From contig CP129478.1 in NCBI GenBank assembly GCA_030583845.1, positions 407,175 to 471,174 of the forward strand: 64,000 nucleotides of DNA. The letters run 5' to 3'. The notes under the pieces are model-generated. The model ran no database searches, was not told the origin of the DNA, and worked only from the letters and a program-made list of their open reading frames with translations. Shown here one piece after another: positions 1-57,420 of this stretch. The translations under genes were made by a program, and so were the position numbers. Source of the stretch: Candidatus Dojkabacteria bacterium (lineage in GTDB: Bacteria; Patescibacteriota; Dojkabacteria; SC72; JAHDCA01). Positions within the stretch are counted from its first letter, which is position 1; the number at the start of each line of letters is the position of its first letter.

Positions 1-357
1 GAGGTACAAAGCTCAGTTCGCGAAGGCACACTCTCCTCACAGATTCCATTGTTCACAACAATCCCACGCGGCTTTGATTTCTCAAACAAGGTTGGTTACT
101 ACTACTCGGCCCCAGAGTGGATTATCCAGACTGACAAAGAAGCCTTTGCTATCGACCCAACTATTGTAGAAGCGAAGAATGTACAAATAAGTGGAAATGG
201 TCCTCTGTTTATAAGCCCTACCTCACAGCCTACAGAAGGAGACCTTGTGGTCTATAAAGATGGCTCTAAACTGGTGGTGGACAAGTTCAGTGGTACGATT
301 GAGTCTTCGACGGTCGTCGGTATAGTACTTGCACAGGAGCGCCGTTTCGTCGAATAA
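1..357 (+). CDS. hypothetical protein, 5'-partial (frame open from window start; first ATG at 49)
   Basis: Frame 1 has no stop from base 1 to the stop at 355-357. The ORF track gives a 102-aa product from 49. No recognisable motif. Confidence 0.3.
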   Translation, partial: EVQSSVREGTLSSQIPLFTTIPRGFDFSNKVGYYYSAPEWIIQTDKEAFAIDPTIVEAKNVQISGNGPLFISPTSQPTEGDLVVYKDGSKLVVDKFSGTIESSTVVGIVLAQERRFVE

Positions 358-15900: not shown

Positions 15901-16854
15901 GTAGAAGCCTTCAACATACTGCAATCTTCGGATCAAAGACATCTTCTTTGCCTTTGATTTCTGATTCTTGATCTGGTGCTTAAGGTTTGAGACCTCTCCA
16001 TCGAGGTCAATCTTATCCAAAAGCTCCTGAATAGCCTCAGCACCCATCTTTGCTTTGAAGAAGAGCAGGTCACGATCCTCAAGGTCAACATACTCATCTT
16101 CTGTAATTATTGTGCCTACTGTTACCTCTTTTAGAAGCTTCATCAGTTTTGTATAGAAGGTCTCGATCGACTCCTCTCGCTCTGCAAACTCGCGTCGAAC
16201 CTTCGCAACTTTCTGGCTCCTCTTATGCTCGATCTGACTTGCCTTAAATTCTGCCTTTGACTTATCTTTCTCTTTCTTGCCACTCTGCTTGATCTGACCA
16301 TCAAATTCATCGTTCACTTCCTTAAGCGCAGCTTCCAATTCTGTATCCAGTGTCTTTCGATCTTCTGCGAGATACTCTTCAGCAGCCTTTACCTTCACCT
16401 CTCGGGACTCATTGTCCACTTCAACAACCATATATCTGGTGTAGTAAACAACTGAGAGCATCTTCTTGTGTGACATATCGAGAACGATAGACATCTTGTT
16501 TGGGACACCGTATGCAAACCATACATGTGTTACAGGTACTGCGAGGTCGATGTGACCCATTCGCTCGCGTCGCACATCTTTTCGAGTTACCTCTACACCA
16601 CACTTATCACAGATAATGCCCTTGTATCGTACTTTCTTATACTTACCACAGAAGCATTCATAATTCTTGGTAGGACCGAAGATCTTCTCACAGAAGAGAC
16701 CCTCTGGCTCCATCCTATATGTTCGGTAGTTAATGGTCTCGGCTTTTGTAACCTCACCATATGACCACCCTTTGATCTGCTCCGGCGATGCAAGCGTGAG
16801 CTTCAATGCATCGAAGTCGGAGTAGTCCTGTCTAAAGTTCTTCTTGGTTTTCAT
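12928..16854 (-). CDS. rpoC: DNA-directed RNA polymerase subunit beta' (RpoC)
   Basis: 1308 aa. NADFDGDQMAVH catalytic motif, zinc-binding CxxC N-terminus, full-length collinear. Confidence 0.97.
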   Translation of the reverse strand: MKTKKNFRQDYSDFDALKLTLASPEQIKGWSYGEVTKAETINYRTYRMEPEGLFCEKIFGPTKNYECFCGKYKKVRYKGIICDKCGVEVTRKDVRRERMGHIDLAVPVTHVWFAYGVPNKMSIVLDMSHKKMLSVVYYTRYMVVEVDNESREVKVKAAEEYLAEDRKTLDTELEAALKEVNDEFDGQIKQSGKKEKDKSKAEFKASQIEHKRSQKVAKVRREFAEREESIETFYTKLMKLLKEVTVGTIITEDEYVDLEDRDLLFFKAKMGAEAIQELLDKIDLDGEVSNLKHQIKNQKSKAKKMSLIRRLQYVEGFYQNKIDPSWMIIKTLPVIPPELRPIIALSGGKFATSDLNDLYRRIINRNNRLKRLIEIGAPDVILRNEKRMLQESVDALIDNSHRPSKPMMNNKKLPYKSLTDDLRGKKGIFRRNLLGKRVDYSGRAVIVGDTRLKLHQCGLPKAVALEMFKPFLIHDLIETELAPNIKVAKEMIDAEEDIVWDILEKIIKNKPVLLNRAPTLHKYSIQAFYPVLVEGDSIRIHPLVCKAYNADFDGDQMAVHVLLTEEAIKEGVEKMLSTYNIIDIKNGGVLASPTNDMLLGYFLMTDYKESDKPRMFGSFEEAVRAYDRGLLEIDEAIFVKGKGKVHNTSVGRVMFNQVLPEDYKFINQRIGKSDVDEIIREIKDQYSLDEVVRLLDDLKMLGFKFATTLGFSFSMEDCKVDIDLKKRIQEVEQKDLHLQENYLQGLLTEQEKTNLSVTMWNEFTDELAAEAWASLDKNNPVFEMVTSGANGGQIQARQIMSIKGMARNASGDWIKLPLKGNYREGLGTFEYFVATGAGRKGVADTALRTASSGYLTRKLHDVAHDVIVRMEDCGYDGDGYIIRRADERRLSFEKTIEGRVLAQDLKDGKGKVVLKKNEIISREVAENSEELGINEVFVRSPIVCEAPLGICQMCYGHDIEQNKLVEIGKAAGVIAAQSIGEPGTQMTLKQFHFGGAKKVDITQGLPRVEELFEARTPKAEAEIASVDGKVSITTADDGSSQILITGKKLSERHYIVGNAKKVSVADGDKVTIGQTLFIDSHEKEKQAPFTGVVKIDHGIMTVTGKLDAEELISVLSGFDILVIDGQEVTAGTQITVGSVDPKKLAEYASITRAQEYVIREVQGVFSEQGVTIDDVHIEVIVRQMAKLGMVMDAGDSEYLIGSLVNRYGAELLNDGLREEGKNVALIAPKLLGIKTTALKTESFLSAMSFQEQVRVLTESAITGRVDTLQGMKENVIIGRRIPVGDEARIDIEEAKELYAEPEVITATE

Positions 16855-19800
16855 TGGTCTCCTCGCTCTTCGCGTTAGAAATTAGATCAAGGTTTATGCA
16901 GAGTGCATTCAACTCTTTTACGAGTACCTTGAATGACTCCGGTAAGTTGATATTTTCAATCTTCTCACCATGGATAATTGCTTTGTAAGCCTGGGCACGT
17001 CCCTGGACATCGTCTGATTTGATAGTGAGCATCTCCTGAAGTGCATACGGTGTCCCGTGTGCCTCGAGAGCCCATACTTCCATTTCTCCGAATCTCTGAC
17101 CACCCATCTGTGCCTTACCACCAAGAGGCTGCTGTGTTACCAATGTGTATGGTCCTGTAGATCTAGCATGTACCTTCTCGTCAGCGATATGCTTCAGCTT
17201 CAACACATACTTCATACCTACGGCTACTTTCCTTGGGAACTTCTCACCTGTCCTACCGTCATACAGATCAACCTTCTCTGCCATCTCAAATCCGTTCTTC
17301 TTCAATTCTTCTGCAATCCACTCGCTGTTTACATCCTCAAATGTTGGGATTGAGAGCTTGATTCCAAGCATCTCGGCATAGTGCCCGAAGTGCACCTCAA
17401 GCGCCTGACCCATGTTCATACGCTTTACAAATGTAGGTGTCAGGACAATATCAACTGGCTGTCCATCTGCCGTGAAAGGCATATCCTCAACTGGCCTGAT
17501 AGCTGCGATTGTGTTCTTGTCTCCGTGCCTACCCGACAGCTTATCACCGTAGTCTACTTTCTTGGTCTCTGCGACCCATACCTTCACCTGCTTTAGCACG
17601 CCTGGCTTCAACTTATCGTCATTCTCGACTGATAGCATCTGCGTCTTAACAACAATACCTTTCGATCCGTGGGGAACTCTGAGTGATACATCTCTTACTT
17701 CGCTTGCAGCTTTTCCGAAGATTGCTCTCAAGAGCCTTTCCTCAGCTGTAAGCTCCTGCTCACCTCTTGGTGCTACGATACCGGCGAGGATATCTCCACC
17801 ATTTACACGTGCACCTACTCGTACAACACCCTCGATATCAAGATTGTGCAAGATTCTGATCGCTCACATGTGGGATATCTGCAGTAAGTACCTCAGGTCC
17901 GAGATCTGTATCTCGGAGATCTTGCATATATTCTCGGATATGGATTGATGTCAAAGTGTCATCACGCACAATGCTCTCTGAGATAACTGTTGAGTCCTCA
18001 TAGTTATAACCCTCGTAGAACATCAATGCTGCTCGAATATTTGTACCAAGTGCTAGCTCACCATTGTCCATAGTTGGACCGTCAACGAGCACATCATCTT
18101 TCTTAAATTTCTGTCCTACATCGACACGTGGCCTCTCTGAGAAAGCTGTGTCATAGTTCGACCTGAAGAATTTGGTGATCTTGTACTCCTTCTTTCCAAG
18201 CTTCTTATAATCAACCAAGATATGGTCTGCATCAAGTGTCAGTACTACACCATCATCTTCTGCGAATACACCCCAACCTGACTGTCGAGCAACGATCTCT
18301 TCATATCCTGTACCAACCATAGGTGCCTGCTGCTTAAGCAGAGGGACAGCCTGTCTTTGCTGGTTTGAACCGGTAAGCGCTCGCTTCGAGTCGTCGTGGT
18401 GAACAAATGGGATAAGAGCCATACCTACACCTGCCTGCTGTGCAGCAACCAGGTCGATATAGTTCACCATCTGTACATCCTGCATCAAGAAGTCTCCCCT
18501 ATACCTTACAGGTACGATCTTCTCAAGGATGTTGCCATCTCCGTCCACCTTGATGCCTTGCAAAGTAACATGCGCATCTTTCTCACTTGCTGCATCTAGA
18601 TACTCGATCGACTCTGTGATGAACGATCGAACCTCTAGCTCCTTCATATCCTTATTCTTAGCCAACTTTGTCGCAATTGCGGCTGTGATTACCTCACCCT
18701 CTTTTACGATAAGTTTGCCAGCCTCTTTGATATCTTCTGCGGCTAATCTTCCAACTGCATCCTTGCCATTGTTCTTTACATGATTGCGGACTACGTAGTA
18801 TGGAGCCTCGATAAAACCAAAGTCGTTGATCTTTGCGAACATTGCCAGCTGGTTTACAACACCGATCGATGCGCTTTCTGGGCTGGTGATAGGGTCGATA
18901 CGTGAGTAGTGTGTGTGGTGAACCTCACGGATTGAGAATGTAGCTCTCTCCTTGGTGATACCACCTGGGCCTGATGCGGTTACTTTTCGCTTATTCTCAA
19001 GCTCTGAAAGGATATTTGCCTGATCCATGAACATTGAAAGCTGGTTTGAGCCGAAGAAGTTGAGGATCGCAGCCGAGATAGGCTTGGTGCTGACAAGCAT
19101 TGATGGTGTAAGTTTTGAATCCTCACCGTACATGCTCATCTTATCCTTAATATTCTTCTCTACTCTTCGTACACCTACTCTGAGCTGGTCGATCAATACC
19201 TCACCGACGCTTCGAATTCTTCGATTTGACAATGAGTCGATATCGTCCGCTGTTTCAACGCCGTTGTTGATCTGGATAAGCTTCTTGATTATCAAGATCA
19301 GATCATCTGTGTAAAGCCTGCACTCTGGACCCTCAAGAGGATACTCTGTGCCAAGCTTTCGGTTGAGCTGGTAACGACCAACCTTTCCGAGGTCAAACCT
19401 TCTGTCATTGAAGAAATGTCCCTTAACATACTTCTCTGCACTCTCCAGGGTTACATTCTCATCAGGTCGGAGCTTGTTGTAGACATTGATTACCGCCTCT
19501 TCTCGTGATCTTGTGAAATCTCTTGCCAATGTAGCTTCTATATATTTGTGGTCTTCACTTGTATCTACATCTTTGAAAAGATCCCTTATCTCATCGTCTG
19601 ACTCATAACCCAAAATACGGAGAAGCTCGGTAAGGAGTACCTTTGGTCTCTTCTGTACCAATCTAATTGAGATTACATCGTGCTTGTTTACTTCAAATTC
19701 ATACCACTGTCCTCGTGCTGGCATCAGCTTTGCCGAGTAAAGGTTTCTTGCTGGAGATTTATCACTGATGTCGAAAAGCACTCCCTCTGCTCGCACTACC

Positions 19801-20213
19801 TGATGGGTAACTACTCTGCGTACACCATTAATAACAAAGTAGCCATCTTCAGTCATTAGAGGCATATCTGCCACGAATATCTCCTGCTCCTTGAGCTCAC
19901 CAGTCCTGTTGTTCAGCAGCTGCGAAGTCACGTATACAGGCGCATCATAAGAAAGCCCCTTGTCAGAGGCTTCTTCTACTGTGCGATTTGGCTTCCCATA
20001 TCGAAAATCCTTAAAGTCGAGGGTCCACATCCTCTCCATAGTGTCTTTCACCGGGGTGATTTCGGAGAAGAGGTACTCAAGGCCATCCTTCTTAAATTCT
20101 TCAAACGATTTGATCTGTGCTTCGATAAGATTCGGAAATTGAATCTTTGACAGATCTGTAGCACCGAGGTTGACTCTGCCCGCCCGGTTACTCAAGATTT
20201 GCTTTGCTGCCAT
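16832..20213 (-). CDS. rpoB: DNA-directed RNA polymerase subunit beta (RpoB), split into two overlapping ORFs by an apparent +1 frameshift near 17840-17851
   Basis: The N-part ORF (to about 17838) ends ...ADIPHVSDQNLAQS*. The C-part ORF begins (TTG)HNLDIEGVVRVGARVNGGDIL. Together they align collinearly with E. coli RpoB ...[32 protein letters not shown]. One extra nucleotide within AATCTTG restores the frame. Confidence 0.9.
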
Positions 20214-20607: not shown

Positions 20608-22891
20608 ATGGGAAGACGAAAAAAAGCGACATCGGAAATAACTATTCATAGTAAAGAAACCAGGATTATACTTGGTTTATTCCTCATACTTATAGCGCTT
20701 ACGCTTATCGCTGCACCGTTCAGCACAGAGGCTGTCTTCGAGCCGATTGTATTCTATCTTGGGGTACCATCAGTGGCCTGGGGAATCCTCATACTCCTCA
20801 TGGCAATCCGCGTCATCAAAGGCCCGAGCAAGTTTACAAACTGGAAAACCATTACAGGTACGCTTCTTATCGCTCTAATTCTCAACATCCTCTTCACATT
20901 TTGGATCCCCGAGGAGATATTAAGCAGCCAGACAGACTTCTCCAATGAAGGTGGCCAACTCGGATATATATTGCACACACAGCTAAATGCCATGGTAGGA
21001 GACTTCATCGAATTTGTACTTATTATTGTATTAATAATTGTAGCCTTCTCCCTCATCTCAGGTGTAAGCCTCGAACGGATCTCAAATAGTGTGGGCAACC
21101 TATTCGACAAGCTATTTGAAAGCCGCAATAAACTGAAGCTTCCAAAAGGTGAGGATGACGACGGAATCAGCATTGTAGATAGTATGTTCAAAGGCGGCGA
21201 CGACGATGAGGCTATAGATGAAGCAATTGAGCCAGAGATTGAAAATGGAGCCGAGCCGATCGCGAATATGAGGGCAAAAACCGAGCCAAATATGAGTGCC
21301 AACGTCGAGGCAGAGATCCGTGAAGCAACAGGCAAAGAGTTCGTAGAATCACCAAAGTCAAACAGCAAAGAAAGCAGTGAAGAGGAAAGCAGTACACTTA
21401 GCGAGCCACTATATCCAAACTGGAAATTCCCACCAGTAAACCTGCTCCAGAAGCCACAGGTCAGCCCGCAAGACCCAAACCTACACAAGCGCAACGCCAG
21501 CGTCATCGAGAAAACCTCTGCGCAGCTTCAATATTGAGTCACGTATCAGCAAAGTCACAATCGGCCCAACAGTCGTCCAGTACGCTCTAAGCATTACCGT
21601 AGGCACCAAGGTCGCAAAAGTGCGCAACCTCTCAAATGACATCGCATTGGCTCTAGCGACACCTGAGTCACAAATCCGCATCGAGGCTCCGATCCCTGGC
21701 ACCTCATTAATTGGTATCGAGATCCCCAACCCTACCCCGAATTTTGTATTCATCCGTGAGCTGGTCGAGAAGCTGAATGAAGAGCACGACAAATATAGAC
21801 TACCTATCATTCTTGGTAAGAATGTCGCTGGCCAACCAATCATCAAAGACCTCACAAGTCTCCCCCACCTCTTGGTCGCAGGCGCGACTGGTACCGGTAA
21901 ATCTGTAGGTATCAACTCGCTACTAACTGGTCTACTTATGACCAAGTCTCCTGATGAGCTAAAGCTTATTCTCGTCGACCCAAAGATGGTTGAGATGGCG
22001 CCTTATAATGGCATCCCTCACCTACTCACTCCGGTCATCACAGATATGGAGCTGGTAGTAAATGCGCTACAATGGACTGTCGAGGAGATGTTGAAGCGGT
22101 ATAGGGTATTGAAGCAGATCGGAGCCAGGAATATCACCGAGTACAACGACAAGGTTGGCGATCTAACAATGCCATACATAATAGTAGTAATCGATGAGAT
22201 GGCTGACCTTATGCTTACGACTGGAGTAGATGTAGAGTCAAAGATTGTACGACTAGCTCAGATGGCACGAGCAGTGGGTATTCACCTAATATTGGCAACC
22301 CAGAGACCTTCTGTAGATGTAATCACTGGCTTGATCAAGGCAAACGTGCCGGGTCGAATCGCATACAGCGTATCGACAGCTATCGACTCACGAGTAATCA
22401 TCGACCAGACTGGCGCAGAGACACTGATCGGCAAGGGAGATATGATGTTTAAATCACCTTCTACAGGCAGACCTATCCGTATGCAGGGTGCTTGGACTGA
22501 CACAGTCGACACCGAGGCGATCATCAGCTTTATCAAAGACCAGACGAAAGAGCTTAAGTATAGCGACGCAATCACCCAGCCGAAAGAAGAGAAGTCAGAA
22601 GGCGGAGGAGCTGCTTCGGGTCATTCAGATGACGCAATGTTCGCAGATGCACTCGAGGTAGTTGTAAATGCTCAAAAGGCATCGGCCTCCCTACTCCAGA
22701 GGAGATTGAGGATCGGTTATAACCGGGCTGCCAGATTGATTGATGAATTGCATGAGGCAGGAGCAATAGGCCCACAGGAGGGTAGTTCACCACGAAAAGT
22801 GCTAGTCTCCAGCAGTGATCAGATCTTAGGCGCAGGCAGCAGTGACGTTGATGATTTTGCAGACAACCAGGACGACAAGTCCGACTTCTAG
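20608..22891 (+). CDS. ftsK: DNA translocase FtsK/SpoIIIE (N-terminal membrane domain, linker, motor, gamma domain), with an apparent +1 frameshift near 21521-21529
   Basis: ORF1 (20608..21537) gives 4-TM and linker. The frame-2 reading from about 21440 gives ...FNIESRISKVTIGPTVVQYAL... (the FtsK alpha/beta start), then the Walker motor VAGATGTGKS and gamma domain LLQRRLRIGYNRAARLIDELHEAG. The junction KTSAQ(L)/FNIES matches the FtsK ETLAEFGIEA region after skipping 1 nt. Confidence 0.85.
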
Positions 22892-50718: not shown

Positions 50719-50967
50719 CTACTTAACTCTTTTCATCGCGGCATACCAGACATTCCCATGTTGCTTCAGTTTCTTCTCGCGGTCGTACGCGGCAAGCATT
50801 ATCATGTAACCCTCCACATATACAAGCTCCCACCTATGTTTCTTGGTGTAGCCTCTGTTTAATAATGAATTGTGCTGATTGAGGCGTAGTAGAAGATTAG
50901 ATGTTACACCAATGTAAAATGGATACCGCCTTGGTTTAATTGATTTGAGCACATATACGAAGTACAC
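50719..50967 (-). CDS. GIY-YIG domain nuclease-family small protein (UPF0213/YhbQ-like)
   Basis: 82 aa. YFVYVLKS...YIGVTSNLLLRLNQHN...GYTKKHRWELVYVE is GIY-YIG. Confidence 0.7.
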   Translation of the reverse strand: MYFVYVLKSIKPRRYPFYIGVTSNLLLRLNQHNSLLNRGYTKKHRWELVYVEGYMIMLAAYDREKKLKQHGNVWYAAMKRVK

Positions 50968-51052: not shown

Positions 51053-52321
51053 ATGTTCAAGCTGCCTTTCCTTGGCCAGAAAGATGAGAAAATCCAGATA
51101 ACGCCTGATACACATCTTGTTGCGATTGATATCGGGACAGAAGCGCTTAAAACGATACTTTTCACGATCGATCAGTTCGGCGTCCACGTTAAAAAAGTGG
51201 CGCGCATCAACCAGCAGCAAAACGCAGTCAGCAAAGGTGTAATCCAAAACCTAAACACGGTAATGGAGAATTGCAACCTTGCCATAAACCAACTCACTAA
51301 CGAGTTACCCGAAGAACAATTGCCAAAGCACTCAGTAATGGGCATCGCAGGCGAGTATGTTCAAGGCGTTTCAATCATTGTGAACTATGAACGGGAAGAA
51401 AAGTATGACTTCGAAGTTACGGAGAAAGAAGAGGCACGCATAATTAGCAAAGTACACCAGCAAATATCCGAAGAGGGCAAAGAAGATCTGGCACGCCGCA
51501 CAGGCCTAATGCGTGAAGATATTGAGATTCTACATATAACCGTGACCGGCATGGAAATCGGTGGGATGAATGTAGAATCACTCCAGGGATTCCGTGGGAA
51601 AAGTGTCAGGCTTTACTTCTATGCCTCTTTCGCACCAAAGACATATATCGAAGCGTTGAAATCGGTGGCTAATGGGTTAAACATGTCACTAATGGGGATC
51701 GTTGCACAGCCGTTTGCTGTTGCGCGCGCCTATGCAGGCGCGCGCAACAAAGACTTCTCAGCAATCTTTGTCGATATCGGCGGTGGCACAACCGATGTCG
51801 CAGTCGTTAAAAATGGAAATGTCCTAGACACCCAAATGTTTGGATTTGGTGGGCGTGTATTTACTAAAGAGCTTGCCGCAGCCATGAACCTCGATTATAG
51901 GCATGCAGAGATGCGCAAGATTAAATATTCAAATAATGAGCTAGACGACAAGATTAAAAACGAGGTTAAAAAGCATATGAGAGAGACAACCTCAGTGTGG
52001 ATCAAAGGATTGAAGGCTGCAATCGAGAGCATCGAGGATGTAGAGGTGATGCCGACCCAGATCTATCTCTGTGGTGGTGGCGCACTTTTACCAGATATTA
52101 AGAATAGTATGCTAGAGTATCCGTGGACTCAGCTGCTACCCTTCCCGACAGTACCGAAGATCAATATCTTCCTCCCTGAGAGACTTTATGAGATTACAGA
52201 TGAGTCTGGCGAGCTGAAAAATGCATTTGATGTTACACCAGCCGCACTTGCTCGTTTTGCATATGATAAGATAACAAAGCCCGAAAACTACTACTTCAGC
52301 ACAATTAATGATTCCAAGTGA
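51053..52321 (+). CDS. actin-like ATPase of the FtsA/PilM family (FtsA-like, with 1C/SHS2 insert)
   Basis: 422 aa. LVAIDIGTEALKT (phosphate 1), VDIGGGTTDVAVV (phosphate 2), IYLCGGGALLPDI (adenosine motif). Confidence 0.6.
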   Translation: MFKLPFLGQKDEKIQITPDTHLVAIDIGTEALKTILFTIDQFGVHVKKVARINQQQNAVSKGVIQNLNTVMENCNLAINQLTNELPEEQLPKHSVMGIAGEYVQGVSIIVNYEREEKYDFEVTEKEEARIISKVHQQISEEGKEDLARRTGLMREDIEILHITVTGMEIGGMNVESLQGFRGKSVRLYFYASFAPKTYIEALKSVANGLNMSLMGIVAQPFAVARAYAGARNKDFSAIFVDIGGGTTDVAVVKNGNVLDTQMFGFGGRVFTKELAAAMNLDYRHAEMRKIKYSNNELDDKIKNEVKKHMRETTSVWIKGLKAAIESIEDVEVMPTQIYLCGGGALLPDIKNSMLEYPWTQLLPFPTVPKINIFLPERLYEITDESGELKNAFDVTPAALARFAYDKITKPENYYFSTINDSK

Positions 52322-52441: not shown

Positions 52442-54580
52442 ATGAACCTGAATTCGAATGTTAAAAAAATTGTAATAAAGCCCGATCACGAGCTTACGGA
52501 TGTGATTCGCCAAGTCAAGAATGCGAAGGAGGATCGCATTGTCCTCACATTCACAGAGAAATCTGACATGCTTGTTAGCCCTATCAATATGAAGGTGCTT
52601 CTCGAAGAGGCCGATGCAAATAGCAAGCTACTTGTAACCCAGATCATCCAAAACCCGGCCGGTATCCGCAACTCGAAAGCGGCGGGAATTATCACAACCG
52701 ACAGCTCTGGTGCAGTTGACGAGGATATGTGGAGTAAAGCAGAAGAGACCTTCTCAAATCGTGTCGCAGCATTTCAGAGTCAGCTTAAGTCAAACCGTAC
52801 AACCCATCAGGACACAGATACACATGCTGATCCTGAAGCAGATATTATTGTAGACCTCACCGACACAGTCAAAAATCCTGTCACCGAGATTGAATTTGAA
52901 GATCAGAACCCTGAGCTGACCCATGTTGAGGAGCTAACCACTGAATCGTCTCCAGATGAGATGAGCGATCTACAGGTAGATGATATGAGCCATAAAGCTG
53001 AAGAGGTTGCAGGTGAGGAGAATACACCGGACATGCAAAGCCAGACAAATCAGCCCGAGACAGCATTTAGCAAGCGAGTAAACAGCGCGATTAAACGCTC
53101 ACAGGAAGAGCTAATCCGCAAGAGCAGCAGCAAGAAGGTTGTAAGCGAAAGCGGAGTTGCGATCGCACTCGACAGCGACATTGACGATCAATCAGCTGGT
53201 AGTGCAAATTCTATGGTCGGTAAAGATTTCAATGCAATGACGCCGGGTGGGATGGCAAAGGCACCATCAAAGATCCCTGCAATGTCTGGCGCACAGATGT
53301 TTAAAGCACCTGGTGGCAAAGCTACATCTGGAGCCAAGTTCAATTTCGCAAATTTGAAGCTACCAAAGATAAATATGGCCGCCCTAAAGAAGAAAGGTCC
53401 TATTGTTGCGATCCCCATTGCTTTAGTTGCCCTATTCATCGTCTACATCGTGTATGCAAACGCTCCTTTTGCTTCTGCCAAGATCTATATTGAGAGTCGT
53501 CCAGTCGAGGTCGAGGAATCATTCACCGGTAAGCCAGATGTCACAGAATTTAATGTCGAAGATAGAATGGTCCAGATCAAGCAGGAAGTGGTAGAAAAGG
53601 GTCGCTCCGACTCTCGTGAGACCACCCAGACAGCACGTCGTGGTGAGAAGGCCGATGGTATAGCAAATGTGAGATGCTATCTAAATGGATCTCTAGAGCT
53701 AGCCGAGGGTACAGTGATAACTGCGCCAAACGGTCTCCAGTTCCAGACCTTAGCCACAGTGACTATGATCTGCCCATGGCAGGAAACTGTCGCAGTCGAA
53801 GCACTGGCTGTTGGAAGCGAATACAACATGCAATCGGGTACACTGTTCTCGGTACCAAACTACAATGTAAACCAGGTGGTTATGCAAAATGATCTTTCGG
53901 CATTTACAGGTGGCTCAAGCGAGGAGTACCAGGTGGTTGGACAGGTCGACATCGACAACGCCAGCAAAGATCTACAGGAATCAGCCTTCGAAGAGGCTAA
54001 TAGTGAGCTTCAAGAGATGGCAAAAGATGGCTGGAAAATTATTGATTCAACGATCAAGAACGAGGTTGTTGGTGGTGTGAAAAGCGATTACCCTGTCGGT
54101 GCAGAGGCGGAAATAGTTAATGTGTCTTTGGAGACTAAATCAACCGCGCTTTATTATAAGGAGGATGAGATAAAAGATGTGGGTGAAGAGCTTCTACTCG
54201 AGGCTGCTCGTGAGCAGAATCTGTTCGATTCAGATGAAGATCTTGAGCTGAAGCTTGGTGATGATATTTTAACTGAGGTAAGTGTGGAAAAAGTCGAGGA
54301 CACGACAGTGACAATAAAAGTGAAATCTTCCGGCTCAGTTAAGCCCGACGTCGACAAGAATCAGATCATTGCTGACCTAAAGGGCATGGGCTGGGAAAAT
54401 GGTACAAAGTATCTTGAAGATCTTAACTTCACATCTAAGGACCCTCAATATGAGTTCTCCCCTACCTGGTTCCCAGGATTCTTGTGGAGATTCCCATCAA
54501 AGCAGGGCCGGATCAAGCTCGTAGTCGAAGAAGTTGAGAGACCTGCCGAGGAGAATACGAGTGAGGCGACTGAGGAGTAA
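52442..54580 (+). CDS. hypothetical bitopic membrane protein (cytoplasmic N-domain, acidic linker, TM, large extracytoplasmic C-terminal region)
   Basis: 712 aa. TM IVAIPIALVALFIVYIVYA at about residue 320. No catalytic motif recognised. Directly follows the FtsA-like gene. Confidence 0.5.
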   Translation: MNLNSNVKKIVIKPDHELTDVIRQVKNAKEDRIVLTFTEKSDMLVSPINMKVLLEEADANSKLLVTQIIQNPAGIRNSKAAGIITTDSSGAVDEDMWSKAEETFSNRVAAFQSQLKSNRTTHQDTDTHADPEADIIVDLTDTVKNPVTEIEFEDQNPELTHVEELTTESSPDEMSDLQVDDMSHKAEEVAGEENTPDMQSQTNQPETAFSKRVNSAIKRSQEELIRKSSSKKVVSESGVAIALDSDIDDQSAGSANSMVGKDFNAMTPGGMAKAPSKIPAMSGAQMFKAPGGKATSGAKFNFANLKLPKINMAALKKKGPIVAIPIALVALFIVYIVYANAPFASAKIYIESRPVEVEESFTGKPDVTEFNVEDRMVQIKQEVVEKGRSDSRETTQTARRGEKADGIANVRCYLNGSLELAEGTVITAPNGLQFQTLATVTMICPWQETVAVEALAVGSEYNMQSGTLFSVPNYNVNQVVMQNDLSAFTGGSSEEYQVVGQVDIDNASKDLQESAFEEANSELQEMAKDGWKIIDSTIKNEVVGGVKSDYPVGAEAEIVNVSLETKSTALYYKEDEIKDVGEELLLEAAREQNLFDSDEDLELKLGDDILTEVSVEKVEDTTVTIKVKSSGSVKPDVDKNQIIADLKGMGWENGTKYLEDLNFTSKDPQYEFSPTWFPGFLWRFPSKQGRIKLVVEEVERPAEENTSEATEE

Positions 54581-54588
54581 ACCGACAC

Positions 54589-54732
54589 ATGGTTAAATTG
54601 TGGAAGGCGATTAGGCGAGTCTCTCCAATTCTTAAGGAGTACATGAACGGTGAAATTAGTGACAAAGCGCTTATTGAGAGGCTGGATCTATTTTTTGTGA
54701 AATTTAGTGAGAAGAGCGAACTGGAGATGTAG
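54589..54732 (+). CDS. possible small ORF (47 aa), weak support
   Basis: ATG at 54589. GAGGAG lies 11 nt upstream, which is a long spacer. MVKLWKAIRRVSPILKEYMNGEISDKALIERLDLFFVKFSEKSELEM. Confidence 0.2.
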   Translation: MVKLWKAIRRVSPILKEYMNGEISDKALIERLDLFFVKFSEKSELEM

Positions 54733-54752
54733 GTTGGCACTTAGGTTCACAC

Positions 54753-54766
54753 GGAGAGAAATGGAT
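54753..54766 (-). repeat. att-like direct repeat: copy of the tRNA-Ser 3' end (GGAGAGAAATGGAT on plus; 13/14 match)
   Basis: Reverse complement ATCCATTTCTCTCC matches the tRNA-Ser(GGA) T-arm 3' strand plus acceptor 3' strand. Followed by GGACGCTCGGTCG, which is shared with the copy at 55829. Confidence 0.5.
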
Positions 54767-54830
54767 GGACGCTCGGTCGATGCCCAACTATCGATTACTC
54801 TTAACAAATCTAGTGTGTAAAAAGGTTGGT

Positions 54831-55109
54831 CTAATCCTCTGACCGAACATTGGACACCTTCAGATCCTCTGATTTGTAAAAAAAATACCCACAGTGCTCT
54901 GTAAATATCCCTATTTCCCCTAAGAGCTCATTCTTAATATAAAAGGCATATCTCAATTTCATAGTTGAGTCATCTGGGAATAAAACCTCAACAGTACTAT
55001 TAGCGTCAAAATCAGTCGCTTCTAAGGTTTTACGTGCCTGGCCCGTTCGCTCATATGTATATTTTTCAATTTGTTCAACCCAGTTATCTGGGACAATATT
55101 GCTTACCAT
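54831..55109 (-). CDS. hypothetical protein (cassette ORF between att-like repeats)
   Basis: 92 aa, no motif recognised. Sits between repeat copies at 54753 and 55146. Confidence 0.4.
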   Translation of the reverse strand: MVSNIVPDNWVEQIEKYTYERTGQARKTLEATDFDANSTVEVLFPDDSTMKLRYAFYIKNELLGEIGIFTEHCGYFFYKSEDLKVSNVRSED

Positions 55110-55145
55110 TTTTGTATTATATACTGCTTATACACTTTATCCTAC

Positions 55146-55159
55146 GGAGAGAAAGGGAT
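55146..55159 (-). repeat. att-like direct repeat: exact 14-nt copy of the tRNA-Ser 3' end (GGAGAGAAAGGGAT on plus)
   Basis: Exact match to tRNA-Ser positions 55973-55986. Followed by a conserved block of about 105 nt (55160-55265) homologous to 55829-55937. Confidence 0.55.
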
Positions 55160-55379
55160 GTTTATGCGTGTCACTTCGACCCTCTCAATAAATCAGGGAG
55201 TTGAGCTGCTCCCTGATATACGTACCCCCGCTCGCTTCGCGAAGCAGAGGTTCTCACAATAATCTTCTTCATTGATCTCCAACCATCCAGAGGCTTTCGG
55301 AGATTAAATGCAAAACTACTCTTATAGTTAGTGCAAAAGATACAACAGTTCGTATAGCTCAAAGTAAGATTTTGATGCG

Positions 55380-55781
55380 TTACCCGAAATAACCCTTTTC
55401 ATATACCTTTTGAAAAAATTCCTCCATATTTTTACCTAGTTCAATAATTGCGTCGTATTCGAACATAAATGGAATAAGAATAACTTTCGATTGATTTTCT
55501 CTTAGATCGAAGGCTATAGCTTCACCTCCACCATTTGATCCTATTAAAAAGATTCCAGGAGTAAACTTTTCTACCTCATAATTGGCATTCATTTGCTTTA
55601 GATCTTCGACTTTGTACAGTATTAAATATTCCTCACCAATAAATCCTTCCCCACCATTATGTAGCTGTAGAAATGATAAATAATCAGAGGGTGTATTATC
55701 CGGCAAGTTTAGATCTAATAGGAGTTTTTTATCGACTCCTGGGTTGCCATTAAATTTTTTAAGATATTTCTCGTTGATCAT
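55380..55781 (-). CDS. SMI1/KNR4 (SUKH-1) family protein, putative polymorphic-toxin immunity protein
   Basis: 133 aa. LPDNTPSDYLSFLQLHNGGEGFIGEEYLILYKVEDL...FLIGSNGGGEAIAFDL is the SUKH/SMI1 hallmark. No toxin gene is adjacent. Confidence 0.6.
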   Translation of the reverse strand: MINEKYLKKFNGNPGVDKKLLLDLNLPDNTPSDYLSFLQLHNGGEGFIGEEYLILYKVEDLKQMNANYEVEKFTPGIFLIGSNGGGEAIAFDLRENQSKVILIPFMFEYDAIIELGKNMEEFFQKVYEKGYFG

Positions 55782-55814
55782 GTTTATAAATATTCATAAA
55801 TAATTTTTGAACTC

Positions 55815-55828
55815 GGAGAGAAAGGGAT
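55815..55828 (-). repeat. att-like direct repeat: exact 14-nt copy of the tRNA-Ser 3' end
   Basis: GGAGAGAAAGGGAT. The adjacent 55829-55937 block contains hairpins (CAGGGAG...CTCCCTG; CTTCGCGAAG palindrome) shared with 55160-55265. Confidence 0.55.
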
Positions 55829-55937
55829 GGACGCTCGGTCGCTTTGCTCCCTCTCTAGATATCAGGGAGTTAAACTGCTCCCTGATATACGTACCCCTGC
55901 TCGCTTCGCGAAGCAGAGGTTCTCACAATAATCTTCT

Positions 55938-55974
55938 CCGTTGACCTGCAACCCGATGGGTTACAGGTCAACGG
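55938..55974 (-). promoter_or_regulatory. 17-bp hairpin (CCGTTGACCTGCAACCC-GAT-GGGTTACAGGTCAACGG) abutting and overlapping the 3' end of tRNA-Ser
   Basis: Read directly. One G-U wobble. Could be a tRNA 3' processing or terminator structure, or an integrase arm site. Confidence 0.4.
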
Positions 55975-56059
55975 AGAGAAAGGGATTCGAACCCTTGGCA
56001 CAGTTTCCTGCGCGCACGCACTCCAAGCGTGTCCTTTCGACCACTCAGGCATCTCTCCT
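55972..56059 (-). tRNA. tRNA-Ser (anticodon GGA), type II with long variable arm, no encoded CCA
   Basis: Minus strand: GGAGAGA-UG-CCUG AGUGGUCGAAA GG-A-CACGC UUGGAGU GCGUG-CGCGCAGGAAACUGUGCC-AAGGG UUCGAAU CCCUU-UCUCUCC-G. All stems pair, G discriminator. Confidence 0.85.
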
Positions 56060-56192
56060 CTGCTTTCTTTTGGCTAATATGAGCCTCAGAAAGAGCATCA
56101 AGAGTATATCAAAAGTACTGTTTGGCTTAAAGAAGCTTGGATCATGATAATTGCAACTATTTGAAGAGATGCTTCTCAACCTTATCGAGGCT
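56060..56192. repeat. 133-bp segment upstream of tRNA-Ser, duplicated at 56828-56960 (about 93% identity)
   Basis: Aligned by eye, about 10 mismatches. Both copies lie directly 5' (in tRNA orientation) of a tRNA-Ser copy. Confidence 0.7.
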
Positions 56193-56297
56193 GCACAATA
56201 GTGCCATTGAATCATTAGAGAGCTTCGCAAGTTCCGATTGTATCAATAGAAAAAAGCCCAAGAAGATCTTGGGCCTAAGATCTATACCGTTTAGATA

Positions 56298-56594
56298 CTA
56301 CATCTTCGCAAGAATTTCTTGCTTCTTCTGTGTAAATTCTTCCTCTGTGAGGATTCCTTTATCTCTAAGATCTGCTAATTTCTGAAGCTCTGCTGCATAA
56401 TCAACTGCAGGAGCATCTGCCACTGGAGCGTCTGCTGCTGGCATTGGTGCTTGCTGCATCTGCGGATCTTGTGGTGCAGCCTGTGCCTGCTGCTGCGCCT
56501 GGTTACTTCCCTCGATATTCTTGCGGATTGCTCGGTTTGTTCGTGCACTGCTAACCGCCTGTGCAGTAACTGCTGCTCTTAATAATCTACCCAT
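56298..56594 (-). CDS. SHOCT-domain protein (Gln/Ala/Pro-rich linker, C-terminal SHOCT)
   Basis: 98 aa. C-terminal LQKLADLRDKGILTEEEFTQKKQEILAK matches the SHOCT motif. Confidence 0.45.
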   Translation of the reverse strand: MGRLLRAAVTAQAVSSARTNRAIRKNIEGSNQAQQQAQAAPQDPQMQQAPMPAADAPVADAPAVDYAAELQKLADLRDKGILTEEEFTQKKQEILAKM

Positions 56595-56665
56595 TATTGT
56601 GTGGTGTTAATTTATTATTACTGGATTATATCACGGCGGAGATGAAGGATTGGTTTTGGGGATTT

Positions 56666-56827
56666 GGAGAGAAAGGGATATCTACGTGTGCCACTTCGTG
56701 GCAACTTCGCTGTCCGTCATGCTTCCCACTCACTTCGCTCGCGGAGCATGTCCGCTCGAACCCTTGGCACAGTTTCCTGCGCGCACGCACTCCAAGCGTG
56801 TCCTTTCGACCACTCAGGCATCTCTCC
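56666..56827 (-). tRNA. second tRNA-Ser(GGA) copy interrupted by a 75-nt insertion inside the T-loop (between UUCGA and AUCCC); pseudo-tRNA or intron-containing
   Basis: 5' part 56827..56755 is identical to copy 1 through GGGUUCGA. Then the 75-nt insert (plus 56680-56754). Then AUCCCUUUCUCUCC (plus 56666-56679). Confidence 0.6.
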
Positions 56828-56960
56828 TTTGCTTTCTTTTAGCTCATTTGAGCCTTAGAAAGAGCATCAAGAGTATATCAAAAGTACTGTTTGGCTTAAA
56901 GAAGCTTGGATCGTGGTAATTGCGACTATTTGAAGAGATGCTTCTCAACCTTATCGAGGC
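56828..56960. repeat. second copy of the 133-bp tRNA-upstream segment
   Basis: See 56060-56192. Overlaps the last 11 codons of the ORF 56926..57213. Confidence 0.7.
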
Positions 56961-57213
56961 GAGCACTATTCCCATCAACCTGGGCTTGGGTTAGTGGCAG
57001 CTCTGCCATTACGTAACTGTGGATCTGCATTACAAGATCCTGTAGGCTTCCGAAGTTGACCTTGAAGTCTGCAAATGCAGTCTCAAGTTTATCAAATCTC
57101 TCTTCTAGTTCATCAAAACGAGCGTCAATACTTGCAAACTTTAAGTCCTGCGTTGTAAACCTTTTCTCCATCAAAGCATCAATTAATTGTAGGTCTTTCT
57201 TTGTAAGAGCCAT
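56926..57213 (-). CDS. hypothetical coiled-coil protein
   Basis: 95 aa. The C-terminal 11 codons lie inside the duplicated segment. Confidence 0.4.
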   Translation of the reverse strand: MALTKKDLQLIDALMEKRFTTQDLKFASIDARFDELEERFDKLETAFADFKVNFGSLQDLVMQIHSYVMAELPLTQAQVDGNSARLDKVEKHLFK

Positions 57214-57420
57214 ATCGCAATCAATATAAACTTAGTTGATTATATTCGATTATAAAAAGTAGATGTTAAAAATTTGTGAAATCTGGGAAATTTGTACTCC
57301 ATGTTAAAACATTCTCTCTCTACTCAAAACTACCCCCTTCATCCTCCCTACCAAGCGACTTTTGTGCGATAATATTAATGAAATCTTAATGAACTTAAAA
57401 TTTAGCTTTGCAGGAATTTA

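Follow-up and report, generated by a model that had tools for sequence, protein, structure and literature searches.

The window, that is the whole 64-kb stretch of DNA that was analysed, belongs to the core chromosome of a reduced Dojkabacteria genome of 1.04 Mb and carries groEL, dnaK, rpoBC, dnaG, rpoD, metS, leuS, rnj and the jag-yidC-yidD-rnpA-rpmH cluster. A single tRNA was called in it by ARAGORN, a tRNA-Ser(GGA) at 55972..56058 on the minus strand (copy 1), which was also matched by Rfam RF00005 with 54 bits. The surrounding tRNA region (54581..57420) is bordered by the gene of a Baseplate_J-like 712-aa protein and the gene of a 680-aa protein with a holin/phosphodiesterase domain. An interrupted second copy of the tRNA (copy 2; 56666..56827, minus strand), with copy 1 sitting 769 nt downstream of it, was called by neither ARAGORN nor Rfam. 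All features of the tRNA region given below are on the minus strand. For comparison, syntenic Logan contigs were recovered by exact-protein look-ups; these relatives cover three related species, and their contigs stop at repeats.

The first 72 nt of copy 2 (56756..56827), from the acceptor 5' strand to T-loop A58, are identical to copy 1 (72/72) and end with GGGTTCGA, as the earlier note had described. After a 76-nt insert (56680..56755), copy 2 picks up again with the 14-mer ATCCCTTTCTCTCC at 56666..56679, identified by a 14-mer search and made up of the T-loop end, the T-stem 3' strand and the acceptor 3' strand. The 72 nt and the 14 nt add up to the full tRNA body. The insert itself had been correctly recognized, while its reported size of 75 nt (56680-56754) was one base short. 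By standard tRNA numbering, the T-loop (TTCGA|AT) is interrupted after A58 and before A59, and this breakpoint is unambiguous, the two ends having 0 bases in common. The tRNA part stops where the 14-mer starts, so the insertion point does coincide with the 5' edge of the repeated 14-nt core, as had been stated. Copy 2 is a genuine but broken duplicate of tRNA-Ser(GGA). Since its T-loop is split, it cannot make a normal tRNA, and the downstream copy 1 would supply the tRNA-Ser(GGA) function.

The duplication is wider than the tRNA. A 205-nt repeat with 96% identity is present at 55987..56191 and 56756..56960; it takes in 133 nt upstream of the tRNA, promoter region included, and reaches the last ~35 nt of ORF95 (56926..57213; coiled-coil, no family), which lies upstream of copy 2. 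On the copy 2 side the repeat comprises the ORF95 3' end, the tRNA promoter region and the tRNA 5' part, and on the copy 1 side a truncated ORF95 3' remnant is followed by the promoter region and the tRNA 5' part. All 8 mismatches fall upstream (8/133) and none in the tRNA part (0/72; hypergeometric P = 0.029). A promoter-like stretch, TTTTGATATACTC, is common to copy 1, copy 2 and the related contig L003, and the first 67 nt of the tRNA are identical even in L003. Given this conservation of the tRNA, the 6% divergence upstream against none in the tRNA fits an import from a related strain, and one of the two 205-nt copies would derive from a related strain or element.

Read in the orientation of the tRNA, the region begins with ORF95, followed by the first 205-nt repeat, at whose end the tRNA 5' part lies, and then by the 76-nt insert and a core. 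Next is a SHOCT-domain ORF of 98 aa between copy 2 and copy 1 (56298..56594; Pfam SHOCT, 2.5e-10), with its own terminator-like hairpin (56254..56276, terminator scan). The second 205-nt repeat then completes the intact tRNA with its core (55973..55986), and another terminator-like hairpin comes right after copy 1 (55935..55977, terminator scan); the first ~17 nt of this hairpin are kept after the tRNA/core in L003 and L006. The following segment consists of a 105-nt structured repeat with two hairpins (55849..55953), an A-type arm (..CCGAGCGTCC) and a core (55815..55828) that closes an ORF-less 157-nt unit. It is followed by a SUKH-1/SMI1-KNR4 immunity-type ORF of 133 aa (55380..55781; Pfam, 1.1e-10), the second copy of the 105-nt repeat downstream of this ORF (55180..55284, 90% identical to the first), a diverged copy of the B-type arm (55160..55186, repeat comparison) and a core (55146..55159). 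The last features are ORF92 (54831..55109; no function assigned), whose homolog adjoins the Baseplate_J-like gene in L006, an A-type arm, and the outermost core ATCCATTTCTCTCC with 1 mismatch (54753..54766). The cores at 55815, 55146 and 54753 with their arms were located by repeat and core searches.

The five cores are all on one strand in direct orientation within 2 kb (exact at 56666, 55973, 55815 and 55146; 1 mismatch at 54753), against 0.84 expected from shuffles when up to 2 mismatches are allowed (<=2). Every core has an A- or B-type arm 5' of it, except the core within the intact tRNA. The arm+core patterns are GYCACGAAGTGRCACACG..ATCCCT and CCGAGCGTCCATCC, and the GCGAAGYGAG / RGCRAAG motif is common to the arms and the 76-nt insert. 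Between the cores lie single-gene units (SHOCT, SUKH-1 and two ORFs without known function), which are arranged head to tail, measure 157-693 nt and contain one gene or none each; in three cases the ORF starts 25-72 nt after the core. No recombinase or integrase domain was detected with Pfam among the 44 window ORFs scanned, cassette ORFs included.

The ORF-less 157-nt unit (55815..55971) has a DNA fold far better than shuffles (z = -3.95). A second copy of its 105-nt core is found at 55180..55284, and the segment kept after the tRNA/core in L003 and L006 is its first ~17 nt. It had no Rfam family match in the scan of 53-59 kb at E<=1. The role of this unit might be that of a structured site for recombination or of a small RNA.

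Judged from its sequence, the 76-nt insert has the appearance of a compact form of the module with which the neighbouring units end. Its motif GCGAAGTGAG also occurs in the 105-nt repeats and in L006, and CGAAGT is present three times within it. On manual reading, nt 9-34 align with GCTTCGCGAAGCGAGCGGGGG, the first hairpin of the 105-nt repeat, and the last 19 nt together with the core resemble the 55146 junction (85% over 33 nt). The last 35 nt, GACAGCGAAGTTGCCACGAAGTGGCACACGTAGAT, lie directly 5' of the 14-mer (56680..56714) and correspond to a B-type arm, with 29/35 positions identical to L007. Next to the longer modules with the 105-nt repeat, the insert gives the impression of a truncated form, as a deletion would leave. 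Small hairpins are found near both insert ends, and the two hairpins quoted in the earlier note (GCGGA-CATGC-TCCGC and GCCAC-GAA-GTGGC) are indeed there. The DNA fold of insert plus core was no better than shuffles (z = -0.05), and an integron attC-like fold was rejected on this ground. An IS200/IS605-type miniature element (PATE/MITE) was also rejected, since the insert is single copy in the 64 kb and its conserved flank is always on the core side, the wrong side. No second copy of the 76 nt was found in the 64-kb window, and a chimeric six-frame protein query of copy 2 plus the modules gave no match at E<=10.

Alignment of homologous loci, proposed in the earlier note as a check, was performed with the relatives. 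L003 and L004, with ~70% amino-acid identity in the flanking gene, have one uninterrupted tRNA-Ser(GGA) without the insert, followed by two NUDIX genes. A degenerate second tRNA 3' end, ATCCCTGTCTACCC, is present in L003 (6824..6837, minus strand), 23 nt past the tRNA and just before the NUDIX genes, indicating that the att-type duplication predates the lineage of the window. L007 and L008 contain the same NUDIX genes as L003, with 95% nucleotide identity over 1514 nt, and their contigs end 34 nt upstream of the core. The homology of L003 and L007 stops at the 5' edge of a core copy; past this point L003 continues with the tRNA side and L007 with the B-arm. A presence/absence polymorphism with its breakpoint at the repeat was thus seen, in this one strain pair only. 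Past the core edge L007 reads GACAGCAAAGATGTCACGAAGTGACACACGGGAT, which agrees with the final 35 nt of the insert at 29/35 positions, and the hairpin change from insert to L007 is compensatory (GCCAC/GTGGC to GTCAC/GTGAC; a single covarying pair).

A different cargo is present in L006 (69% amino-acid identity), including homologs of SHOCT (73.6% nt identity, in the variable region) and ORF92. An A-type arm is present there too, as are a degenerate core and a homolog of the hairpin that follows the tRNA in the window. Between the same conserved flanking genes there are accordingly NUDIX genes in L003 and L007, and an ABC transporter, SHOCT and others in L006. Three species have the arm|core boundary in common. 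Other blastn matches between the variable region and the relatives were confined to the tRNA, ~30 nt upstream of the 680-aa gene (L003, L005), and SHOCT plus ORF92 (L006). The more distant L010 and L013 have tRNA-Arg and tRNA-Ser at the locus, and neither an extra copy of their own 14-mer nor A-/B-type arms were found there. No recombinase was among the Pfam matches for the variable regions of L003, L006 and L007. The arm+core patterns had 0 matches in viral and metagenome contig collections, in which no cognate integrase-bearing element was found, and BLAST of the 2.8-kb region against phage and plasmid collections returned the tRNA only. Likewise, 0 matches were obtained for the tRNA 23-mer in metagenome and genome contig collections and for the 680-aa neighbour in a protein search of the genome contig collection, and exact look-ups of the SHOCT and SUKH-1 proteins gave no record.

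The 3' ends of tRNA and tmRNA genes are well known as attachment sites (PMC1762012, PMC3146451). We propose that the 3' end of the tRNA-Ser(GGA) gene anchors the variable region as such a site. Each unit ends in a conserved arm (A or B) plus a repeat of the terminal 14 nt of the tRNA, and the exchange point of DNA would be the 5' edge of the 14-mer, at T-loop 58|59. This exchange point is suggested by the end of the L003/L007 homology and by the end of the tRNA part of copy 2, both at this edge; the latter would be expected at about 1-4/87 for a random break. In copy 2, the duplicated promoter and tRNA 5' part would have been joined at 58|59 to a 90-nt end-module (76 + 14) instead of to the 14-mer alone, and a site-specific recombinase encoded elsewhere would cut at 58|59. 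Direct repeats of the tRNA 3' segment do bound the inserted DNA, with five cores in the window and copies in L003, L006 and L007. It is probable, though well short of certain, that copy 2 is a dead tRNA copy and marks an att-type junction of non-canonical form, within a hotspot of cassettes anchored on the tRNA. Because copy 2 keeps the promoter-like stretch and the terminator scan placed no terminator-like site ahead of SHOCT, it is probably transcribed and may now act as promoter and leader of this gene. The earlier note had argued for a recombination junction over random decay, and the 14-mer edge, the recurring arm+14-mer module and the L003/L007 break bear this out, but its term "attL-type hybrid" is inaccurate. 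The arm|core half resembles a distal (attR-type) junction fused straight to the tRNA 5' part, with no core between. An intact tRNA regenerated at the proximal junction, as integration at a tRNA 3' end should give, is seen at copy 1 and not at copy 2. Canonical integration yields the order tRNA5'-core-element-arm-core, not tRNA5'-arm-core. Moreover, GCGGACA at the start of the insert is unlike the core ATCCCTT, which makes an ordinary exchange of the second strand difficult to envisage. No integrase inside the element beside the att site was found, either with the 44 window ORFs scanned or in the relatives' variable regions. Several stepwise histories were considered and rejected, namely a Campbell insertion via the 205-nt repeat, insertion into a core of a 693-nt circle carrying the intact tRNA, an unequal crossover, and template switching; every one needs a precursor already having the tRNA5'|76 junction, so none is preferred.

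An alternative is an assembly artefact, in which repeats might have been collapsed or mis-joined in a metagenome-assembled genome, and the essential genes rpoB and ftsK look frameshifted, which makes small assembly errors possible. Nevertheless, the 205-nt copies differ at 8 positions and hence are distinct loci, and a 76-nt insert is beyond what small indel errors create. Contigs from other samples point the same way. The L001 contig ends in the 205-nt repeat, just before a site where both copies differ, five contigs from five samples end at the same point in the 105-nt repeat, and contigs with ORF95, ORF92 or the 712-aa protein all end in repeats. Since short-read contigs of independent samples stop where repeats would branch the graph, the repeats are real and not peculiar to one assembly; short-read contigs of other samples also have copy 2 variants beside ORF95 and end at the predicted branch point, while the copy 2 junction itself was read from this assembly. 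We therefore regard an assembly artefact as very improbable. Still less credible is the T-loop intron that the earlier note had offered as an alternative, in which the 76 nt would be excised to give a second functional tRNA-Ser. Copy 2 resembles known tRNA introns (group I, PMC13011429; archaeal bulge-helix-bulge introns at non-canonical positions, PMC3241643) in that an insert splits a tRNA with intact exons, which here sum to the full tRNA, with acceptor and T stems that can pair around the insert, and Patescibacteria are a phylum known to be rich in tRNA introns (PMC13011429). However, the known group I tRNA introns of Patescibacteria lie in the anticodon loop (PMC13011429), whereas the insert is at A58/A59 of the T-loop. 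The covariance-model check suggested before was run with Rfam and matched copy 1, not copy 2; at E<=1 the 53-59 kb segment gave copy 1 and one antisense plastid match without any intron or ribozyme family, and the whole 64-kb window gave the tRNA only. No group I catalytic core was recognized in the insert by covariance models. Known group I introns are much longer than the 76 nt of the insert. A bulge-helix-bulge is absent as well, the cloverleaf-constrained fold placing the 5' junction within a helix and leaving the 3' junction in a single strand of 8 nt, and the fold of the insert has no advantage over shuffles. No splicing endonuclease or ligase was found among the ORFs scanned in the 64-kb window. 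Furthermore, the module at the 3' end of the insert is found at 55146 as well, without any tRNA 5' part, an intact copy adjoins, the gene of L003 is uninterrupted, and no conservation as an intron was seen. A spliced copy 2 would equal copy 1 in sequence, so tRNA-seq cannot tell them apart.

Another explanation for the junction is an illegitimate rearrangement, in which a microhomology deletion after the duplication, or a template switch, joined TTCGA to the interior of a module and the match to the core edge is chance. By manual reading, the 105-nt repeat has GCGAAGCGA|GCGGGGG where copy 2 has TTCGA|GCGGACA, with CGA|GCGG in common, and the 76 nt match only the 3' part of the longer modules. 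The lack of a recombinase among the 44 window ORFs scanned and the fact that canonical recombination cannot yield this junction are in its favour, and with an intact spare the loss of copy 2 would be harmless. On the other hand, the left break is at the sole position where the 14-mer starts (about 1-4/87 for a random tRNA break), the same edge is the L003/L007 homology breakpoint, and the arm|core boundary is shared by three species. Such a rearrangement is a serious contender, though the less likely one in our estimation. Apart from its origin, copy 2 may have been retained for a use, either as a tRNA promoter and tRNA-like leader for the SHOCT cassette or as a docking site for further cassettes, and this we consider quite doubtful. 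Copy 2 has an intact version of the promoter-like stretch that copy 1 and L003 also carry, and the terminator scan placed no terminator-like site between copy 2 and the SHOCT ORF and one after SHOCT. The cloverleaf-constrained fold is only 0.5 kcal/mol above the free fold; the acceptor and T stems of such a leader can still pair, and RNase P or RNase Z might trim it. The 0/72 changes in the tRNA part compared with 8/133 upstream would also agree with retention, but this conservation fits equally well a divergence of two lineages before the copies met. In addition, SHOCT has its own -10-like GTGATATAATC (identified by eye); the L006 homolog is likewise preceded by it, with no tRNA found there.

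With copy 2 read as a dead tRNA copy at an att-type junction, the locus belongs to a known kind, tRNA integration hotspots with att-type debris and small cassettes. In tandem islands at tRNA/tmRNA genes (Dehalococcoides ssrA, PMC3146451), direct repeats of the RNA-gene 3' end likewise delimit successive units past an intact gene, with strain-variable cargo at a fixed chromosomal site. A repeat that begins in the T-loop is also seen in T-loop integration by tyrosine integrases (mycobacteriophage Ms6, PMC1762012). The present locus differs from tandem islands in its units of 157-693 nt, in having no integrase in the units or the scanned 64 kb, and in the copy 2 junction, which has no proximal repeat and splits a duplicated tRNA. 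Att-flanked units without recombination genes, stacked at one site, are a property of CIMEs and tandem accretion (PMC5704250) and are found here; unlike CIMEs, no related integrase-bearing element was found for this site, and we infer mobility from one strain comparison. Similar hybrids beside a canonical gene, easily misread as extra or odd tRNAs, are the partial non-canonical tRNA genes that integrating elements leave behind (PMC9897764), whereas in copy 2 both tRNA halves are present, parted by an element arm. What is odd about the locus is that the proximal core is missing, that the units are very small and that no recombinase was found nearby.

The locus also shares with integron arrays the single same-orientation ORFs, a conserved structured end-module after each, and the fixed-edge exchange. 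In contrast to integrons, there is no intI, attI or Pc, no tyrosine recombinase was found in the window, and the anchor is a tRNA gene. The modules end with ATCCCTTTCTCTCC and have neither GTTRRRY/RYYYAAC boxes nor a long imperfect palindrome, and the cassettes appear to have their own promoters. An active integron-like cassette platform undescribed in CPR bacteria, with the T-loop of tRNA-Ser(GGA) as docking point and an outside recombinase, is in our opinion unlikely. If it were true, cassettes (SUKH-1, SHOCT and others) with A-/B-type end-modules and RGCRAAG motifs would be exchanged at the 5' edge of the 14-mer, and copy 2 would be a by-product of the enzyme or an extra docking site.

The analysis disposes of an attractive but false lead, that of a tRNA intron in a bacterial T-loop, and shows the origin of such hybrids beside a working gene, which tRNA annotation can misread or miss. 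It documents a small tRNA-anchored variable hotspot in a reduced Dojkabacteria genome, within its conserved core near the origin, at which gene-sized units with conserved end-modules are swapped between close strains. Gene gain and loss in CPR bacteria is little known, and if a dedicated recombinase drives the hotspot, it would be a compact and tractable example.

Some further observations were made in the window and the related contigs. The rpoB gene (16832..20213, minus strand) consists of two overlapping ORFs with a junction near 17838..17865. At this junction, CAG AATCTTGCAC AATCTTGATATC, a 10-nt near-tandem duplication shifts the frame, and without it ...DQNLDIEGVVRVGA is restored; the split reflects an error of the assembly or else a true lesion in an essential gene. 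The ftsK gene (20608..22891, plus strand) is split near 21537..21620 into an ORF with four transmembrane segments (4TM) and an ORF beginning with a truncated alpha domain, and the downstream frame is open upstream of the stop of the first ORF, which points to a frameshift. The two splits together suggest small indel errors in the assembly. In contig L014 from another sample (DRR859400), positions 1..40 read GAGCAGGGG, the variant of the tRNA-proximal 105-nt repeat, and then GCAGCTCAAC, the variant of the distal repeat (55180..55284); these mixed variants represent either a SNP or a sign of exchange between both 105-nt repeats.

The Baseplate_J/gp47-like 712-aa gene (52442..54580, plus strand) is paired with an FtsA/PilM-like gene (51053..52321, plus strand). 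This conserved core gene pair, with its phage-baseplate-type domain, is kept across Dojkabacteria down to ~37% identity and is always beside the tRNA-Ser locus near the replication origin. Between the FtsA/PilM-like gene and a conserved 548-aa gene there is a stand-alone 82-aa GIY-YIG nuclease-domain gene (50719..50967, minus strand), which is missing at that position in L003 and present in L014, and which may be a small mobile or homing-type gene.
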